Origin: Anaerolineales bacterium
GTDB taxonomy: Bacteria > Chloroflexota > Anaerolineae > Anaerolineales > UBA11858
NCBI GenBank assembly: GCA_034520505.1
Contig: JAXHNK010000003.1
Location: 22,323 to 86,322 of the forward strand
DNA length: 64,000 bases
Reading direction: 5' to 3'
Every line of letters begins with the position of its first letter. Position 1 is the stretch's first letter. Shown piece by piece: positions 55,558 through 64,000 of the stretch. Under the pieces are notes generated by a model. The model saw only the letters and a program-made list of their open reading frames with translations. It searched no databases and was not told the DNA's origin. The position numbers and the translations under genes are program-made.

Positions 55558-57000
55558 ATGAACTCGTGTAGAGAACCCGTTCGCGTTAATCAAAATATCC
55601 TTGACATGGAATACGCAGTCAGGGGACCCATAGCCCGGCGAGCTGCAGAATTAGCGAAACAAGGTCATGAGATCATCCCCTGTCATATCGGGAACCCCCA
55701 GGCCCTGGGGCAAACGCCGATCACTTACCTGCGCCAGGTTTTGAGCCTGGTTGAGGATCCGTCAAAGATTGAACGAGAGCGGAAGATTAAGTCCTTGTTT
55801 GAAGAAACCCCCTTCAGCAATTTACGGGAGGATGATTTCATTGCAGAAGACATCCTCGATCTGAGCGAGGAAATTCTCGCCAAAAGTCAGCATGGGATGG
55901 GGGCATACACTGAAAGCAAAGGGTTTCAATTTATAAGAGAAGCTGTGGCAGAATTTATCAACCAGCGTGATGGCTTTGAGCCATCCAGCGGACTCGGCGC
56001 TGATCCCGAAAAGATATTTCTGACCAGCGGGGCCAGCCAAGGCGTTAAGTTCGTGGTCGACATCTTGATTGCGGATGAAAACGATGGAATCATGATCCCC
56101 GTTCCCCAGTACCCGCTCTATTCTGCATCGATCAAAAAAGTAGGTGGGGTGCAGGTAAATTATTATCCAGATGAAAAACAAGGGTGGACCTTTGATCGAT
56201 CCATTTTAGAGGATGCATTCATGAAAGCTCAAGCAGACGGGGTGAACGTGAAGGGGATCGTGGTCATCAATCCCGGAAATCCCACCGGCGCTGTTTTAGA
56301 CGAACACAGCATGAGAGATGTGATCCAATTCGCTTCAGAACATCACCTGATGATTATCGCTGACGAGGTCTACCAAGAAAATGTATATCAGGGCACTTTC
56401 CATTCCTTTGCTAAAGTATTGGGAACCGATCCAGTCCCCCTTGTCAGCCTGCACAGCGTATCCAAAGGTTTTTTGGGAGAATGCGGCCATCGAGGGGGAT
56501 ATCTAGAACTGCGGAATCCACCTGAGATTATTGGCTCCACGTTAGATTTTACGGAACTGCTCCACAAACAAGCTTCCGTCAGTTTATGTTCCAACACGCC
56601 CGGACAATTATTGACCTATCTGATGATAAGACCTCCCGCAGATAACAGTCAAACGCACCAAAAGTATATGGAGGAAAAGAAAAAGATATTAAACGACCTT
56701 CATGAGAAAGCGGTTATGATCAGGAAAGCGTTTCAGGAAATGGAAGGCGTGGAATGTTACGGGGAGACAGGAGCTTTGTATTTATTCCCGCGATTGAACG
56801 TTCTCCCTGAAGGGACGACGGATTACGATTATTGCCTGACCCTTCTCGAGGAAACTGGATTGTCCACGGTCAATGGTTCCGGTTTTGGGCAGAAAGAAGG
56901 TACAAACCATCTCAGGATCGCTTTTTTACCTCCCAAGGAATTATTAGAGCAGGTATTGCCCAAATGGATCAAGTTCCATAATCAATATGTAAGGAAATAA
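55558..57000 (+). CDS. PLP-dependent aminotransferase, alanine aminotransferase (ALT/GPT-type) subfamily
   Basis: 480 aa. The PLP-Lys block SLHSVSKGFLGECGHRGGY is characteristic of ALT-type class I aminotransferases. Confidence 0.8.
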   Translation: MNSCREPVRVNQNILDMEYAVRGPIARRAAELAKQGHEIIPCHIGNPQALGQTPITYLRQVLSLVEDPSKIERERKIKSLFEETPFSNLREDDFIAEDILDLSEEILAKSQHGMGAYTESKGFQFIREAVAEFINQRDGFEPSSGLGADPEKIFLTSGASQGVKFVVDILIADENDGIMIPVPQYPLYSASIKKVGGVQVNYYPDEKQGWTFDRSILEDAFMKAQADGVNVKGIVVINPGNPTGAVLDEHSMRDVIQFASEHHLMIIADEVYQENVYQGTFHSFAKVLGTDPVPLVSLHSVSKGFLGECGHRGGYLELRNPPEIIGSTLDFTELLHKQASVSLCSNTPGQLLTYLMIRPPADNSQTHQKYMEEKKKILNDLHEKAVMIRKAFQEMEGVECYGETGALYLFPRLNVLPEGTTDYDYCLTLLEETGLSTVNGSGFGQKEGTNHLRIAFLPPKELLEQVLPKWIKFHNQYVRK

Positions 57001-57275
57001 CTAAGAATAACGAAAAACCTATTAATGTGCTCCAGCCGGTCCTGACAGCCCTGCAGGGCATCCCTCAGCTTCTTGACAGCCAGAAACTGATCCCTGACCC
57101 GGATCAATTTCTGCGCAGTGATAGGGGGATAAAGAATCCCGCCCGAAAAGGTTTCTCCTTCTTTTACCCGGGTGACCGAGTGATCTGCCAATTCTGCTGC
57201 CTCCCTGACCAATCCGATTAATTCAGAATCTTCTGACGCGATCAGGGTCTTTAACGCTGGACCCATTTCATTCAC
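56982..57275 (-). CDS. hypothetical 97-aa protein (weak call)
   Basis: An SD-like GAGG lies 4 nt before the ATG. The ORF converges on and overlaps the aminotransferase 3' end by 19 nt. No family recognised. Confidence 0.3.
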   Translation of the reverse strand: MNEMGPALKTLIASEDSELIGLVREAAELADHSVTRVKEGETFSGGILYPPITAQKLIRVRDQFLAVKKLRDALQGCQDRLEHINRFFVILSYFLTY

Positions 57276-57454
57276 CTCGTAGACCTCCTATCTCCCGGAA
57301 AGGAATCTTTCCGGACGTAAATTTTGATTACAAATGAGGTGAAGGTCTTTTTTTCCGGGAAAACTAACAGGAAAGAAAACGCCGGGGGAAAAGAAATTTC
57401 TTTCCCTGGCGTAAAGATGAACACCAAAAAGAGCTCAGAATCTATTTCTGATTT

Positions 57455-58240
57455 TCAGGCCAAAATCCCTGACCGCTCCAAATAGATCAATCCTACCTGA
57501 AAAACGAGGAAGACAGCGACCAGCACCAAGCTCACCGGCCGGTACTTCACCGGCTTGATATACGTACGTTGCCGAGAAGCACCAAATCCGCGGCATTCCA
57601 GGGCTATTGCCGCCATTTCCGCTTTTCTCAAACCATTAACCAGGACCGTAAACATATACCTCTGCCAGAGTTTAAACCGATGAATCAATCCGGATTGAGC
57701 CGCCCGCCCGCGGATGGTGTGGGCTGATCTGACCGCCTCTACCTCCCGCTGGATCAGGGGGAGAAAACGAAGGGCCAAAAAAACAGCAAAAGCATACCGA
57801 TAGGGAACTCCGGCATTGGCCAGAGAAACCATTAAATCCCGGGTATCCGTGGTCCAGATCAGGACAAAACTGGCCAGGACCACTACAGAGAGGCGGAAAA
57901 AGAAAATGGGGCCTTCTTGAAGTCCACCGTCCGTGATGGTCAGGGGTCCAAGCCGGTAAACGGGTTGACCCGGATCAGCAAAGAAATGAAAAACCATCAG
58001 GATCAGTCCCAGGCCGAAGATCAACTTGGAGCTGCCCAGAAATGTAGCCAGCGGCACCCGCGAAACAACCAGGGCCATAAATAAGATCACCCCGAACATG
58101 ATGGCCCCTGTATAGGGCGTCCGGTAAAAAAACAAGCCTGCAGCGACCACAAAAACCCAGGCCAATTTCGTCAGCGGATAAATGCGGTGCATCAGGGAAT
58201 CTTTGGCTATGTAATTCAATCCATGTTCTTGTTCACTCAT
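57455..58240 (-). CDS. ECF transporter T component (EcfT/CbiQ family)
   Basis: 261 aa, 5-6 TM helices, Arg-rich coupling region (REVEAVRSAHTIRG). Last gene of the S-A-A'-T set. Confidence 0.8.
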   Translation of the reverse strand: MSEQEHGLNYIAKDSLMHRIYPLTKLAWVFVVAAGLFFYRTPYTGAIMFGVILFMALVVSRVPLATFLGSSKLIFGLGLILMVFHFFADPGQPVYRLGPLTITDGGLQEGPIFFFRLSVVVLASFVLIWTTDTRDLMVSLANAGVPYRYAFAVFLALRFLPLIQREVEAVRSAHTIRGRAAQSGLIHRFKLWQRYMFTVLVNGLRKAEMAAIALECRGFGASRQRTYIKPVKYRPVSLVLVAVFLVFQVGLIYLERSGILA

Positions 58241-58243
58241 AAT

Positions 58244-59275
58244 TTACTCACCTGATAATCGTAATTTCAGTAATCGTTCTAAATCCGCCGTTTTTCTGAC
58301 CCTGGTCTCCACCGGCGCCCCGTGGAATTCCATCTCCCGCAGCAGCTTGTGCAGGATCGTCCGGCGCAGATTTGCCTGGTGGAGAATCTTATCCCGGGTG
58401 AACAACCCTTCAGATAAGCCGTCAAAGAGCAGTTGTCCCCCACTCATCACCAGCACCCGCTCACCATATTCCTGAACCAACCGCATATCATGGGTGATCA
58501 TAACCACAGAAACTCCCTGATCCCGGATCTCTTCCATCAAGGACATCAGGGTAAACGTCATCTCCTTGTCCTGCCCGTAGGTAGGTTCATCAACCAGAAG
58601 AATCTGGGGATCACCAACCAGCATGGTAGCTACTCCCAACCTCCGTTTCAACCCCGCGCTGAGGGCGAACGGATGGGTATCTTTCTGTTCGAGCAGCCCC
58701 AGCTTGCCCAGCCATGTATCCGTTCTTCCCTCAATCTCCCGGGGATCAGACACACCCTGGGCCATCAAACTGTAACCTATCTCATCAGCGACACTGTCCG
58801 TCAAAAATTGGTGTTCCGGATTTTGAAACACTAGGGCGATTTGATTAGCCAGGGTCTGCACATCCCACCGGGAAGCCTCCTTCCCAAACAGGTTCAACCG
58901 GCCTCCAGTAGGCTTTTTCAGGCCGACGAGCAAATTAGCCAGGGTGCTCTTCCCGGCTCCGTTCCGCCCCAGGATCATCAACCATTCTCCCTGGTGGATA
59001 TCGAACGTGATCCCCCGCAAAGCTTCTACCCCGCCGGGATATTCAAACCTGAGGTTTTTTCCGGAAATAAGCACCTGTGGTGAACGATCTCCTCGGGGCT
59101 CTGCTTCTTTTTCGCTCACAGAATAACCCTTCTGGAGCAAGCCCTTCTCCTGGAAAAGATCGATCGTTTCTGACACCGTGATGGGAATTGGGTGTTTCTC
59201 TATTCCAGCTGCCTGCTGCAAACCCACACCGATCTCACTGGTTTCCGGCAGCCAGACACCCAGGGTGTCAATCAT
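58244..59275 (-). CDS. ECF transporter ATPase (EcfA') with ~70-aa N-terminal extension
   Basis: GRNGAGKST, LSAGLKRRL and LLVDEPT. Confidence 0.85.
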   Translation of the reverse strand: MIDTLGVWLPETSEIGVGLQQAAGIEKHPIPITVSETIDLFQEKGLLQKGYSVSEKEAEPRGDRSPQVLISGKNLRFEYPGGVEALRGITFDIHQGEWLMILGRNGAGKSTLANLLVGLKKPTGGRLNLFGKEASRWDVQTLANQIALVFQNPEHQFLTDSVADEIGYSLMAQGVSDPREIEGRTDTWLGKLGLLEQKDTHPFALSAGLKRRLGVATMLVGDPQILLVDEPTYGQDKEMTFTLMSLMEEIRDQGVSVVMITHDMRLVQEYGERVLVMSGGQLLFDGLSEGLFTRDKILHQANLRRTILHKLLREMEFHGAPVETRVRKTADLERLLKLRLSGE

Positions 59276-60009
59276 ATACCTGCCATCTCGGCGTAAAACT
59301 TCCCGGGGGAATCCGCTCCGTGAATGCTCCCTTGCTCCAGGACAATCAATTGATCAGCCTCAGCCAGAAATTCATCCAGCTCTCTGGTAACCAGCAAAAC
59401 AGTGATCCCCTCTTTGCGCAGGGTGAGCAGCAAATCGTGTACGTTTTCCGTCGCTCCCGGGTCCAGGTTGGATGTAGGTTCATCAAGGACAATCATCTCC
59501 GGCCTCATTGCCAGGACGGAAGCCAGCCCTAATTTCTGGACCTGTCCTCCGGAAAGGTTCCAGACCAGGTTGTTTCTGCGGTCCACCAGATCGGTCATTT
59601 CCAATAACTCTTCCACGGTGGATTTAATGCTTTCCACCTCCAGACACAGATTCTCCGGGCCAAAGGCGATCTCATCATCCACATAAAGCATGGCAAACAT
59701 GGTTTCAGGATCTTGAAACACCCTGCCCACCTGTTGGGAAAGGTTTTTGACCTCTAATTCCCGGGTATTCTTCCCCTGAACAAAGACATCCCCGTGCAGT
59801 TCGCCACCGAGCAGGTGGGGGATAACTCCGTTTAATAAACCACACAGAGTGGACTTTCCCGAACCGCTGGGCCCTACCAGCACATTAAGGGTTCCGGGTT
59901 GAATCTTCAAAGATACATCATGCAAGGTAGGCTGATCTTGATTCCAATGCGTATACGTGACGTTTTTTATTTCTGCGATGGGTTCGTTTGCTGCGTTGAT
60001 TTGATTCAT
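59272..60009 (-). CDS. ECF transporter ATPase (EcfA)
   Basis: GPSGSGKST, LSGGQVQKL and IVLDEPTS. Overlaps the next gene by 4 nt. Confidence 0.9.
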   Translation of the reverse strand: MNQINAANEPIAEIKNVTYTHWNQDQPTLHDVSLKIQPGTLNVLVGPSGSGKSTLCGLLNGVIPHLLGGELHGDVFVQGKNTRELEVKNLSQQVGRVFQDPETMFAMLYVDDEIAFGPENLCLEVESIKSTVEELLEMTDLVDRRNNLVWNLSGGQVQKLGLASVLAMRPEMIVLDEPTSNLDPGATENVHDLLLTLRKEGITVLLVTRELDEFLAEADQLIVLEQGSIHGADSPGKFYAEMAGI

Positions 60010-60077
60010 AAATTTATGAGCGTGGGATACAGAAACTGTACCCCACGCGTTTAATCCTTAGATTTTCGATCGTCAGG

Positions 60078-60719
60078 CTAAGCTGCTGACCGGACCAAGC
60101 CCGTACGGGCAATCGCCTGGGCCAAAAGATAACCTACCAATCCGCTGAGAATGATCCCGGAAAGCAAATTTATGGGAACGGCCATCCAGACATCGCTGGC
60201 ATAAGCAGGATCCCAGCCGAAGAAAATGGCTGTCCACACCGTGCCGAACTGAGAGGATGCAGCTCCAGCACAGAGCGCTGCCACCAGATCAAACTTGGCA
60301 TACATGGCGATCGCCATCACAACTTCGATGGCCAACCCCTGGCTGATTCCCCAGCCCAGGGTACCTACGCCGGAAGCATTGCCCAGCAGGATTTCCACCG
60401 CTGCTTCAATAATTCCTAGGGCCAGGGCCGCACCGGGTTTCCGGATCAGCCAAACAACCAGGACATAAGCCCACATGAAAGCACCCTGCAGAAGAGCCCC
60501 ACCCAGGGGTCCCAGGGAAGAGTTCGCCAGGTACCACAAGTTACCCACACCGGTATTAACCACGCCGGCTATAGCAGCTACGACGGCCAGGATGACTATA
60601 TCACGCGTGGAATAATCAAAATCGAACCGGCTACCCTCAAAAGTCTTCTTTCCTACGGTGCGGGCGATCAGTCCCGCGACAATCACGATCACGATATTCA
60701 CGATGAAATAGAAAGACAT
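60078..60719 (-). CDS. ECF transporter S component, YkoE-like (by recollection)
   Basis: Start set to the ATG 5 nt after GGAGG. About 6 TM helices. The block IRKPGAALALGIIEAAVEILLGNASG closely resembles the B. subtilis YkoE block as I remember it (IRKPGAALVSEIIAALVECLLGNPSG). Confidence 0.7.
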   Translation of the reverse strand: MSFYFIVNIVIVIVAGLIARTVGKKTFEGSRFDFDYSTRDIVILAVVAAIAGVVNTGVGNLWYLANSSLGPLGGALLQGAFMWAYVLVVWLIRKPGAALALGIIEAAVEILLGNASGVGTLGWGISQGLAIEVVMAIAMYAKFDLVAALCAGAASSQFGTVWTAIFFGWDPAYASDVWMAVPINLLSGIILSGLVGYLLAQAIARTGLVRSAA

Positions 60720-60761
60720 ACTTACCTCCATATAAATCTAGAAGAACACAGTATTCTCCCC

Positions 60762-62141
60762 TTACTTCAAACGGGTCAAGCCCATCTCTATCAGTTCCTT
60801 TTTCACCTCCTTATATAACCTGAACCACTCTTTACGGGGTTTCAGGGTTTCGAGATCATACGCCTGATCAAATCTGACCCCGGGATTGCCCGCGGGGTCC
60901 TCAAAAACGTGCTCATACCGTTCCACAAGTTTGACCGTGATTTCATTGGCTTCTTCCAGGGATAAACCCTGCCTGGCCACTGCTCGCCCCACCTCTCCCA
61001 TCAAACGGCATTCCAGTCCGGTAGCATTGGGTTTCAGGCCATCCGCAGACCCTACACCCTCCAAATGGCCTCCGCTGGCCGTGATCACAATGGCATTGGC
61101 CGCTGTTTCATAAAGGAGTTCCCGGGTCATGGCGCCGCTCTTGGGGTAAATATCCGAGACAATGATACAGGGCGCGTTGCGGGCGAACGCCTGCTGGACG
61201 ATGCTCTCCACCCACATCACGCTCCGGGTTGAAGTCGCTACATGCCGCATATGAATTGGATGAAGCAGTTGATAATCGCTGTGATTGGTTAAGTTCCCGA
61301 TGATGAAAGAGGCGACATTAACCACGGCAGATCCGGGAGCATCCCCACCCAACCCACCCACCAGGACACAGTACAGCGCCGCGTTGTGCATACCGTATTC
61401 CAGCGAATTCACCGCCCGGGCGATGTTCCGGTTATCAATTTTCAACTCATTCAGCATGGGAACCAGATGGGCGTCCGAGGGCCGCAAATAATCAGGATGG
61501 GCTACGGCCAGATCGCCCAACTCAGACACACTGCTCTGGGCCGCCAGCATGCCCATCCCCGGACGGCCGACCCTCTTCAAGATCTGCCGCAGGTAAAGGA
61601 GCTCCCTCCTGGTAGCTACAATTTCTATGGGGGACCCCGTCCGCACCTCGCGCCCATCCACCTCAGCCAGGCTGCCGCAGGTGATCAAATCTACGATCGG
61701 CTCCTGGGCCCAGCTCATCACACTCGGCAAAAAAAGGTGTTCCGGATGGGGTGCGCCGGGATTTCCAGCCCAGATGAGGGGCGGCCGCTCATCGCCAATT
61801 TCCCGGGCGAAAAGCGTCCGGGCATCCTTCCCGGTTCCCAGGACCAATTCCCGGGGCATAAGCTCCATACCCGCTTCCAATTCCTGCCGGTCAAACTCCA
61901 GGATGCGCTCCGTCGAACGAGAATAGCCCCCAATCTCAACCGCCAACTCCAGACCGGCTTCAAAAATCACATCAGCCAGTCCGGGATCTGCAGTTACGAT
62001 CTGATCGGGATCCCACTCCAATTTATATTTCTCGACCAATTTCTGGGTGGTCATGGCCACTTTTTCCAGATCCCAATCATCCTCAGCGATATAGGGACCT
62101 TGGTTAGCACGATCCAAAACATCAAAATAATCAATAATCAC
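60762..62141 (-). CDS. MtmB-family (monomethylamine methyltransferase-like) protein lacking pyrrolysine
   Basis: 459 aa. Blocks DDWDL, LGTGKDA, GRPGMGM, LNELKID and RLMGEVGR are colinear with methanogen MtmB (recalled). A Leu codon sits where MtmB has UAG/Pyl. No in-frame TAG. Confidence 0.75.
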   Translation of the reverse strand: MIIDYFDVLDRANQGPYIAEDDWDLEKVAMTTQKLVEKYKLEWDPDQIVTADPGLADVIFEAGLELAVEIGGYSRSTERILEFDRQELEAGMELMPRELVLGTGKDARTLFAREIGDERPPLIWAGNPGAPHPEHLFLPSVMSWAQEPIVDLITCGSLAEVDGREVRTGSPIEIVATRRELLYLRQILKRVGRPGMGMLAAQSSVSELGDLAVAHPDYLRPSDAHLVPMLNELKIDNRNIARAVNSLEYGMHNAALYCVLVGGLGGDAPGSAVVNVASFIIGNLTNHSDYQLLHPIHMRHVATSTRSVMWVESIVQQAFARNAPCIIVSDIYPKSGAMTRELLYETAANAIVITASGGHLEGVGSADGLKPNATGLECRLMGEVGRAVARQGLSLEEANEITVKLVERYEHVFEDPAGNPGVRFDQAYDLETLKPRKEWFRLYKEVKKELIEMGLTRLK

Positions 62142-62824
62142 TGGGCAGCTCCTTGATTACTCCGCAGATCCCGAATAAAACTTCTGGCCAGCTTAACAGC
62201 TCCCAGGGCATGATCCGCAGTTCCATCCGCACCGATATCCCGGGCAAAATCCTCGGATACAGAAGCACCGCCTACCATCACCCGGAAGCGGTCCCTTTCT
62301 CCCATGACCTCTAACAAATTCATCAGATCACGCATAAAAGGCATAGAGGTGGTCAAGAGAGCAGAGCAGGCAATGATCTCAGCATCCACCTCCTGGGCTT
62401 TTTTGACGATTTCTTTGATAGGGACATCTACGCCCAGATCATGGACCTCAAAACCCGAGGCGGACAGCATGGAAGAGACGATGTTTTTCCCTATATCATG
62501 GATATCTGATTTCACCGTAGCCAAAACCACAACCCCGGTATCATCCTGCTGAGCTTCACCGCTGGCATATTCTTCCTTTAATTGAGGCTCAATGACCTCC
62601 ATGGCCGCTTTCAAAGCCCGACCCGTCATCATCAACCGGGGTAAGAAATATTCTCCGGTCTCGAACTTGTCTCCCACAATCTCTGCGCCTTTCATCAATC
62701 CCCCTTGCAGGATGGAAAAAGCGCTGAGATCAGCTTTCAGGGCCCGGCGTGTGAACTCCACAGCCTGTTCTTCATCTCCGGCAACAATGGCTTTTTGCGT
62801 TTGCTGAATCAATTCTTCACTCAT
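62138..62824 (-). CDS. cobalamin-binding corrinoid protein (MtmC/MttC-like)
   Basis: 228 aa. N-terminal helical cap, then a B12-binding Rossmann domain with SDIHDIGKN (DxHxxG), SALLTT (SxL) and MVGGA (GG). Confidence 0.9.
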   Translation of the reverse strand: MSEELIQQTQKAIVAGDEEQAVEFTRRALKADLSAFSILQGGLMKGAEIVGDKFETGEYFLPRLMMTGRALKAAMEVIEPQLKEEYASGEAQQDDTGVVVLATVKSDIHDIGKNIVSSMLSASGFEVHDLGVDVPIKEIVKKAQEVDAEIIACSALLTTSMPFMRDLMNLLEVMGERDRFRVMVGGASVSEDFARDIGADGTADHALGAVKLARSFIRDLRSNQGAAQ

Positions 62825-63009
62825 AAATCGTCCTTTATAATGATTAATTTTTTCCCGGCTGTTTTGGCTAATTTAACCCGGCGCCGGTCCCGGGGATGAC
62901 ATCCGATTTCCCAGAGCGCTCCACCAACATGAAAACGCTAGCTGCACCACTAAACGTAAGCAGTGGAGAGAACATCCGTTTTAGTTTCTACCAATAAAAG
63001 AAAATGGGC

Positions 63010-63726
63010 TTAACGACCCGTCATCTTACGAAGGACATTAAAAGAAAAGTATTCAGGACGATAATATTCATCAGAATACATCAAGGGTTGTTCATCAGCA
63101 TTGAAGGCTGTTTCTTTAAAATAATGGACCGGGATGCCCTGCTCGCACTGCAAATAACGACTGAGTGCTGAGTCCACGACCACGGGCATGATTTCGGTCA
63201 GGTTATGATTCACCTTCTGATGACACCTTTTTTCCAGAAACGTATAAACCGGCCCATAGAGTTCTTCCTCATCGTAGGCGCTGCGGACAAGTTTCGCCGG
63301 AATGTAATCAACGCAGTAAATCACCGGCACATTATCAGCCAAAAAAACATTGGCCGTGCGCAGAACTTCCTCATCACCCAGGTTCAAGGCTGAACCGATG
63401 GCTTCTCCGGGAACGATTAACGATAGTTCTACATGGCGGACATCAGCTGAAAAACCCGAAGTCTCAATCATTTCTACAAAATCCCAAACTTCTTCCAACC
63501 GGGTCCCGATATTGAGGACGCGTTGATTGATAAAGGTTCCCGATCCGTGCTTCCGGAACAAAATCCCCTCCAATTCCAATTCGGCTAATGCCTGTCGGAT
63601 CGTGTTCCTGCTCACCCCCATCTGGCGGGCAAGGGCAGGCTCGGAGGGCAAGCGCCCTTCCGCAAAATCGCCTCCCTCTATCTGGTGTCTCAACTCAGAG
63701 ACAATCTTTTCTACCCTGGACATCAT
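63010..63726 (-). CDS. GntR-family transcriptional regulator, HutC/UTRA subfamily
   Basis: wHTH LPSEPALARQMGVSRNTIRQALAELELEGILFRKHGSGTFI followed by a UTRA-like effector domain. Confidence 0.9.
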   Translation of the reverse strand: MMSRVEKIVSELRHQIEGGDFAEGRLPSEPALARQMGVSRNTIRQALAELELEGILFRKHGSGTFINQRVLNIGTRLEEVWDFVEMIETSGFSADVRHVELSLIVPGEAIGSALNLGDEEVLRTANVFLADNVPVIYCVDYIPAKLVRSAYDEEELYGPVYTFLEKRCHQKVNHNLTEIMPVVVDSALSRYLQCEQGIPVHYFKETAFNADEQPLMYSDEYYRPEYFSFNVLRKMTGR

Positions 63727-64000
63727 TCCCCGCCTAGTTGTCTAACATCTTATAAAGTTGTCTTTCATCTTCTCTTTTTATATCAAAACCTGGGAATTTT
63801 TCAACAACGAAGGCCGAAAACAAGCCCAAATCCACCCTTTTAAGAAGAAAATCACCCCCGGGACATACGCCCTGTCGCCAGCGCTCCTTACCTCTTAAAC
63901 CGATGCTTGAATCTTAGATCGCTCACCAAGATCCAAACTTTATGATCCGGTTTAAGTGTCAAAATCAAACCAGGAATAAGCTCCTGGTCACAAAAGGGAA

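Follow-up and report, generated by a model that had tools for sequence, protein, structure and literature searches.

Substrate permease genes adjoin the methylamine methyltransferase genes of methanogens, and BCCT carriers adjoin MttB homologs without pyrrolysine (Pyl), such as MtgB. For the MtmB family, a 2026 survey covered 1,061 sequences, both Pyl and non-Pyl, and a substrate is known among the latter for the MtqB clade alone (tetramethylammonium/choline). MtqB, the sole characterized Pyl-free MtmB, acts on the cationic quaternary amines tetramethylammonium and choline, and the main text of its description makes no mention of a transporter, an energy-coupling factor (ECF) system or a permease (PMC13044021). 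Methyl transfer to homocysteine is represented by MtgBCD of Ruegeria pomeroyi, a modular methionine synthase/glycine betaine demethylase (PMC12478193), and by the split MetH of Phaeobacter with RamA and DUF1638 (bioRxiv 10.1101/192971). The closest described transporter is Bacillus subtilis YkoEDC(F), a group I ECF importer for thiamine and hydroxymethylpyrimidine (HMP), for which the structure of the substrate-binding S component YkoE is available (PDB 5EDL; PMC5037267). Here we describe an ECF importer encoded within a corrinoid methyltransferase cassette of an uncultured Anaerolineales bacterium (assembly GCA_034520505.1, contig JAXHNK010000003.1, positions 22,323 to 86,322; this 64,000-nt stretch is termed the window, and coordinates refer to it). 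The importer probably takes up the methylated methyl-donor substrate of the adjacent Pyl-free MtmB-like enzyme, as judged from gene linkage and homology.

The cassette comprises seven consecutive minus-strand open reading frames (ORFs) from a GntR/UTRA regulator through an ECF T component (57455-63726). The regulator at its head is of the HutC type (63010-63726; Pfam GntR and UTRA). It is followed by a corrinoid protein, the predicted methyl carrier (62138-62824; PF02607, B12-binding_2, and PF02310, B12-binding), whose top NCBIfam matches were the MtgC and pyl_corrinoid types with scores under their cutoffs. The MtmB homolog, a predicted MT1, that is, donor-side methyltransferase (60762-62141), matched PF05369 over profile positions 1-450 of 450 (E 1.4e-100) as well as PDB entry 1L2Q (E 1.6e-70). 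Its Leu199 aligned to Pyl202 of M. barkeri MtmB, and a search for an in-frame stop within the gene found none. This arrangement resembles MtqB/MtqC of Methanococcoides methylutens in pairing a Pyl-free MtmB homolog with a corrinoid protein, and MtqB has cationic substrates, whereas that system is archaeal and passes the methyl group to coenzyme M (PMC13044021).

Downstream of the MtmB homolog lie the importer genes, contiguous and on one strand. For the S component (60078-60719, 213 aa), the start codon is the ATG at 60719, preceded by GGAGG at a distance of 5 nt, and homologs start at the same residue. The protein belongs to PF09819 (‘ABC_cobalt’, the YkoE family; 90.1 bits versus a curated cutoff of 25.2). 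The YkoD-like AA′ ATPase (58244-60009) has two ABC_tran domains and is split in this assembly into two ORFs with one such domain each (59272-60009 and 58244-59275). Their top NCBIfam matches, TIGR04520 and TIGR04521, reached 197 and 189 bits against equivalog cutoffs of 315 and 330. The T component, of the CbiQ/YkoC type (57455-58240), matched PF02361 (E 3.7e-36; 125 bits versus a cutoff of 25) but scored only 85 against 111.8 for the equivalog TIGR02454. The NCBIfam scan returned no model matching the S component or the MtmB homolog. From gene content, we classify S-AA′-T as a dedicated (group I) ECF importer inside the methyltransferase cassette; the same set of importer genes occurs in 39-44 related loci. 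The original prediction, made from the window alone, had placed such an importer in a methyltransferase operon, and its ORFs, coordinates and gene calls agree with the ORF list and Pfam.

We then surveyed the conservation of this linkage. Loci were retrieved by a pattern scan for the S clade, with one genome per species, and neighboring genes were assigned by tblastn and ORF clustering. The clade was found in 46 loci from Anaerolineae, other Chloroflexota and Spirochaetia. An MtmB homolog lies directly beside the S gene in 43 of the 44 loci with upstream DNA; 39 of these pairs share a strand and the remaining four, all Leptolinea-type, diverge. S is followed by AA′ and T throughout, T after AA′ being counted in 39 loci, and homologs of the window's S component at 89%, 70% and 64% identity all belong to an MtmB-S-AA′-T arrangement. 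A survey of whether MtmB, a corrinoid protein and this S family co-occur in other genomes had been proposed. MtmB and S do, but no more than ~17 of the 46 loci have a corrinoid-protein gene at a distance of up to 9 kb; L007/L038, for example, carries MtmB-S-AA′-T and no corrinoid gene nearby. A GntR gene was found in ten of the 46 loci and a RamA-type activase in ~15, and GntR/UTRA heads the cassette also in L003-L006 and about ten related loci. What stays constant beside the importer is thus the MtmB-like enzyme and not the cofactor carrier.

Three further comparisons bear on this association. Among 401 genomes of the phylum that were sampled blind, close homologs of S (57-64% identity) and of MtmB (58-66%) occurred in the same two genomes and were adjacent, while 61 other genomes encoded YkoE-like proteins at only ~30% identity, all but one of them without an MtmB homolog. 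Pairwise identities co-vary between S and MtmB (Spearman 0.77) and between S and T (0.71), although the pairwise values are not independent of one another. Sequences from Spirochaetota form one group in the S tree, nested within Chloroflexota (support 100; L020, L024, L026-L028, L030, L037, L038, L041 and L045), which indicates that the whole MtmB-S-AA′-T unit moved between phyla.

Some loci depart from the cassette in the window or add to it. A single metagenome-assembled genome (MAG; GCA_964539105.1) carries the complete GntR-corrinoid-MtmB-S-AA′-T cassette twice on different contigs (L008 and L009), with S components 89% and 87% identical to that of the window; either duplication or strain mixing accounts for this. 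At Leptolinea-type loci, the MtmB operon is divergent from S-AA′-T and includes genes for a homocysteine methyltransferase, RamA, an IF-2B/MtnA-like protein and a CobW-type GTPase. It also encodes an unannotated 232-aa protein, and S-AA′-T is followed by a histone-deacetylase-family and a histidine-phosphatase-family gene (L040, L042, L043, L048 and L068). Apart from these Leptolinea-type extras, no conserved product-handling enzymes were detected in the 46 loci beyond GntR, RamA and the corrinoid protein.

More distant MtmB-like paralogs (28-37% identity), drawn from Chloroflexota and from 18 further genomes in a sample of 301 Spirochaetota, have other importers beside the corrinoid/MtmB pair: Bmp/PnrA ABC systems, NMT1/THI5-like binding proteins, LIV-type ABC systems, SSF symporters, ABC systems with SBP_5 and SBP_1 proteins, and an MFS carrier. 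Variation of the importer class with the MT1 paralog is to be expected for substrate permeases rather than for corrinoid carriers. The window shares with described MT1 clusters a transporter encoded in an operon with MT1 and a corrinoid protein and changing in type with the MT1 paralog; it differs in that those transporters are secondary carriers, whereas the importer described here is driven by ATP and belongs to the ECF class, which is known for the uptake of vitamins and trace nutrients. Among the Spirochaetota paralogs, a cassette of SSF symporter, corrinoid protein, MtmB-like paralog and class I/II aminotransferase recurs (L091, L093, L094, L095, L098, L099 and L102), and in some genomes of this phylum the MtmB query matches as many as five times.

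These patterns bear on two readings offered in the original prediction, import of the corrinoid cofactor or a precursor, in analogy to ECF-CbrT, and import of the methylated substrate of the MtmB-like enzyme. According to the first, the importer would supply cobalamin, cobinamide or a lower-ligand base to the adjacent corrinoid protein. The cassette does require a corrinoid, and ECF-CbrT, the cobalamin importer of Lactobacillus delbrueckii, shows that ECF systems can carry cobalamin and likewise ties such an importer to B12 biology. Moreover, no B12-riboswitch-controlled transporter was found in this genome, which says little because the MAG is 73% complete. The S component of the window, however, has no detectable relation to CbrT, matching YkoE alone among all PDB chains at E ≤ 10, and CbrT is a group II component working with a shared module. 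A cobalamin riboswitch (RF00174) was absent from the window even at E ≤ 5 and from eight related loci (146 kb). The S clade tracks one MtmB subfamily and not the corrinoid gene, the importer is missing from the other corrinoid locus of the genome, and the SSF, MFS, LIV and Bmp importers in the same position beside paralogs include no corrinoid carriers. We found no positive support for corrinoid supply and regard it as unlikely. Import of the methylated substrate is favored because the linkage is to MtmB and not to the corrinoid protein, because the importer type follows the paralog and because no cobalamin riboswitch is present.

The family of the S component was assessed by sequence and by fold. 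The sole phmmer match among PDB chains was 5EDL (E 9.3e-16), and the block that had earlier been noted as YkoE-like aligned to IRKPGAALVSEIIAALVECLLGNPSG; identity to YkoE is 31% over 178 columns. A model computed with AlphaFold2 from 15 clade members (pLDDT 82, pTM 0.82; local and global confidence scores) gave 5EDL as rank 1 and only significant Foldseek match (E 1.1e-8, template modeling (TM) scores 0.78/0.84, root-mean-square deviation 1.7 Å), with the next matches, ThiT and RibU, at TM ≤ 0.46. Both the alignment and the modeled structure identify the protein as a YkoE family member with a six-helix S-component fold closest to YkoE. The model has an extra N-terminal helix (residues 2-21), which many clade members share and the 188-192-aa forms lack. 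The family motif RKPGAAL...E..LLGN.SG is kept together with Gly47, Glu77 and Gln95 (YkoE numbering). Gene order also corresponds, with S, fused double ATPase and T arranged as ykoE-ykoD-ykoC and assigned to the same Pfam families. Unlike YkoEDC(F), the window system has neither a thiamine pyrophosphate (TPP) riboswitch nor YkoF and stands in a corrinoid methyltransferase cassette under GntR/UTRA.

The historical Pfam names ‘ABC_cobalt’ and ‘CbiQ’ are all that speaks for uptake of cobalt (or nickel) to serve corrinoid synthesis. Genes for CbiM/CbiN or NikM/NikN are absent, and the S component begins with MSFYF... and lacks the His2 metal-chelating start of CbiM/NikM. CbiM appeared only at Foldseek rank 46 with a TM score of 0.36. 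Furthermore, the PF09819 member with a solved structure binds thiamine (PMC5037267). We consider metal transport extremely unlikely.

In YkoE, thiamine is contacted by Trp49, which stacks on the ligand, by Glu77 and Gln95 at the pyrimidine ring and by Tyr46 and Asp131 at the thiazole ring (PMC5037267). We compared these positions through the sequence alignment with 5EDL and the contact residues given by that study. Trp49 corresponds to Phe81 in the window and to Phe in all 47 members of the MtmB-linked clade, while ten of 11 TPP-linked homologs have Trp. Tyr46 is replaced by Gln78 (Gln in 47/47; Tyr in 6/11 TPP-linked homologs) and Asp131 by Thr163 (Thr or Ser in 47/47; Asp in 8/11). The two pyrimidine contacts are kept: Glu77 as Glu109 (Glu in 47/47; Ser in seven and Glu in four of the 11 TPP-linked homologs) and Gln95 as Gln127 (Gln in 47/47 and 11/11). 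The clade additionally has 39 private invariant positions, including five Trp, two Asp and several Gln or Asn, among them Trp83, Trp123, Trp162, Trp169, Trp178, Asp170, Asp176 and Gln157; no basic residue in the membrane part of S is among them. The pocket thus appears to retain the half-site for a pyrimidine-like ring with the other half-site rebuilt, and it would suit a positively charged or uncharged ligand rather than an anion.

Phylogeny separates these proteins from ordinary YkoE homologs. The MtmB-linked S components are monophyletic on a long stem (SH-aLRT branch support 98) and stand apart from the TPP-riboswitch-linked YkoE homologs of the same phylum, of whose loci 11 of 14 carry that riboswitch. 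No TPP riboswitch was detected in 57000-64000 at E ≤ 5 or in eight related loci. Judged on its residues and surroundings, the window's S component therefore lacks the marks of a thiamine-specific YkoE, with three contacts replaced and the riboswitch missing. The original prediction had called the YkoE family unexpected for either reading; the family assignment stands, and the puzzle dissolves with the separate clade, the changed pocket and the absent TPP riboswitch.

A further explanation is ordinary thiamine/HMP salvage by a normal YkoEDC importer whose operon position is functionally meaningless. This would accord with PF09819 membership, with 5EDL ranking first by sequence and fold and with the retained Glu77 and Gln95. 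It is at odds with the adjacency to MtmB across two phyla, with the missing TPP riboswitch and with the replacement of Trp49, Tyr46 and Asp131 by residues fixed in the clade. In addition, the genome has a separate thiamine importer: its single TPP riboswitch precedes genes for thiamine pyrophosphokinase and a ThiBP-like ABC system. We consider salvage very unlikely.

If the importer indeed carries the methyl donor, the cassette could operate as follows. Presence of the compound or of a derivative would lead the GntR/UTRA regulator to release the operon. The S component, diverged from thiamine-binding YkoE and now presumably of high affinity for the methylated compound, would capture it outside the cell, with fused AA′ and T driving uptake by the usual ECF mechanism. 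Homology suggests that the MtmB-like enzyme then moves the methyl group to the Co(I) form of the corrinoid protein encoded two genes upstream of S. The cassette itself carries no second methyltransferase (MT2) and no activase. Methyl-corrinoid could be discharged by products of contig 2 of the same genome, a homocysteine S-methyltransferase, yielding methionine, and/or a pterin-binding methyltransferase, yielding methyl-tetrahydrofolate (methyl-THF). A RamA-type activase would keep the cobalt reduced; the contig 2 genes exist, and their tie to the cassette is presumed.

These contig 2 genes form a corrinoid locus (L059, 558000-576000) encoding a methylenetetrahydrofolate reductase-like protein, a Pyl-free MttB, RamA, a second corrinoid protein, a stand-alone homocysteine S-methyltransferase, MetV/MetF, a pterin-binding methyltransferase and DUF1638. 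By its gene content, this locus of an Anaerolineales MAG is a modular (split) methionine synthase like those of Ruegeria and Phaeobacter. It matches MtgBCD and split MetH in combining an MttB-family MT1, a corrinoid protein, homocysteine and pterin-binding methyltransferases, RamA and DUF1638, and Leptolinea-type loci similarly place a homocysteine methyltransferase and RamA beside the MtmB-like gene. The window differs in that its donor-side enzyme belongs to the MtmB rather than the MttB family and comes with an ECF importer; no such importer was found at L059. The single cobalamin riboswitch detected in the genome (L088, contig 5, 91834-91962) precedes a gene for a 509-aa protein with a twin-arginine translocation (TAT) signal and 4Fe-4S motif, possibly reductive-dehalogenase-like, and not one for a transporter or for B12 synthesis.

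Several points weigh against import of the methyl donor. ECF importers are classically low-capacity micronutrient systems, and a bulk catabolic role would be unusual. An anabolic, low-flux use, such as methionine formation with a methyl group taken from a scavenged compound, would account for the pairing of this enzyme with a high-affinity ECF system and not with a bulk carrier. The retention of Glu77 and Gln95 leaves a thiamine-related pyrimidine ligand compatible with the pocket. L032 is the only informative locus in which a member of the S clade is not beside MtmB. Upstream of S it has a Ser/Thr kinase with PD40 repeats, and beyond the kinase the opposite strand carries genes for a corrinoid protein and an MttB-family protein; the contig stops right after S. 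As the loci were retrieved by S-clade patterns, 43/44 tests whether S implies MtmB, whereas the converse, that MtmB implies S, draws on three genomes of the blind Chloroflexota sample and one of the 301 Spirochaetota.

The linkage ties the importer functionally to the MtmB-like enzyme but does not show which ligand is carried, and the importer might accordingly serve another compound of the pathway: the methyl acceptor, the GntR effector or the demethylated product being recaptured. The acceptors homocysteine and THF are, however, intracellular metabolites, and in characterized corrinoid methyltransferase clusters the neighboring permease carries the methyl donor. We judge such alternatives decidedly unlikely.

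For the methyl donor itself, we propose a cationic N-methylated compound, perhaps a pyrimidine- or purine-like heterocycle, as the leading candidate class, one that falls short of being probable. MtqB, whose N-methyl substrates carry a permanent positive charge, is a precedent for a cation. Hints of a heterocycle come from the pyrimidine-contacting Glu and Gln and from the aromatic residue still present at the stacking position. A weak indication of substrate type is that some MtmB paralogs adjoin Bmp/PnrA proteins, the purine-nucleoside type, and NMT1/THI5-like binding proteins. In its most specific and rather doubtful form, our proposal is a methyl-harvesting module in which the YkoE-derived importer would scavenge trace cationic N-methylated heterocycles and the methyl group would pass via the corrinoid and the homocysteine methyltransferase to methionine, or to methyl-THF. 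Candidate ligands may include methylated nucleobases from nucleic-acid turnover or N-methyl-pyridinium or pyrimidine compounds. The lack of a conserved product-processing enzyme in the cassette fits a pathway in which the methyl group alone is used and an ordinary metabolite is left behind.

A sister clade of S components was also observed (L109, L110, L111, L070 and L108), with members 61-89% identical to each other and ~33% to that of the window. Its operon, seen in three independent metagenome loci, runs from PucR to BKACE and encodes a CN-hydrolase, a 460-aa dihydropyrimidinase-like amidohydrolase, a class III aminotransferase, a luciferase-like oxidoreductase, S-AA′-T and an SDR protein. 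At L070, PucR, a CN-hydrolase and a xanthine/uracil permease are encoded beside a sister-clade S gene, and at L065 a queuosine-salvage protein and an amidohydrolase. No TPP riboswitch was found in the PucR/CN-hydrolase operon. That operon looks like one for pyrimidine or hydantoin-type catabolism with an ECF importer of its own, and the sister-clade operons in general look like N-heterocycle (pyrimidine or nucleobase) catabolism, a further weak hint of a heterocyclic substrate for the MtmB-linked clade.

The two ATPases reported at first are, by comparison with homologs, one fused AA′ gene broken in the window by a 1-nt homopolymer indel. In 44 related loci, AA′ is a single ORF of 577-624 aa (median 585 aa) with two ABC domains. 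The frameshift lies inside TCCCCCGGG, where the C-run at 59305-59309 on the minus strand is one base short. Relative to the fused genes of L003, L004 and L007, frame 0 fits the homologs before this run and the frame one base back fits after it (PREVLRRDGRYMIDTLGVWLPE versus PRAILKEHGQFLIESLGVWLPE). The window sequence was also found in contigs of salt-pan and microbial-mat metagenome runs. Logan contigs of runs X1 (salt pan; a single contig spanning the whole stretch at depth 29.6) and X3 (microbial mat) contain one additional G behind 59304, with which the fused frame is intact. X2, a second run of the same salt-pan sample as X1, is without the extra base and has other single-base gaps, which suggests error-prone reads behind the assembly of the window. 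Given the intact frame in the X1 and X3 contigs, the split reflects a homopolymer error or a minor variant and is no feature of the system.

Spacing within the cassette is tight, as had been noted: 68 nt separate S from AA′, the two ATPase ORFs overlap by 4 nt and 3 nt lie before T. The gap between MtmB and S, previously given as 30 nt, measures 42 nt, the shorter value having been counted from an upstream ATG at 60731. With this 42-nt gap and no terminator found, co-transcription of MtmB with S-AA′-T is plausible. In the scan for promoters and terminators, matches were not more common than in shuffled sequences; one promoter-like site (60779-60750, 9/12 matches) spans the MtmB gene end and the spacer and gives no evidence either way. 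Between S and AA′, RNA folding predicted a 13-bp stem-loop on the minus strand (60020-60048; -28.8 kcal/mol, z -5.35 versus shuffles) with no T-run after it. Structured spacers occur at this position in ~19 related loci, and the hairpin may be a transcript-stability or processing element setting the ratio of S to the ECF module. Beyond the cassette, an ALT-type aminotransferase gene (55558-57000) converges on the T gene and is not conserved in the nearest relatives.

Full-text literature searches for a link between MtmB and ECF systems found no paper describing one. ECF S components bind their ligands with nanomolar affinity and often co-purify with them, as YkoE did with thiamine. For this reason, a conserved, dedicated S component beside one MtmB subfamily offers an experimental handle on the substrate of an orphan enzyme. 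Import of the methyl donor, if true, would widen the scope of ECF systems beyond vitamins and metals to methyl-donor supply for corrinoid-dependent methyl transfer. Should the methyl-harvesting proposal also hold, the importer would be the first of the ECF class with a methyl donor as its dedicated substrate, and Pyl-free MtmB enzymes would gain a second substrate class. The MtmB-linked clade and the sister clade of the pyrimidine-catabolism-like operon together show that the YkoE scaffold was reused several times. The distribution of the cassette in Anaerolineae and Spirochaetia, together with the salt-pan and microbial-mat origin of the window sequence, would point to an unrecognized methyl-scavenging route in anoxic communities.

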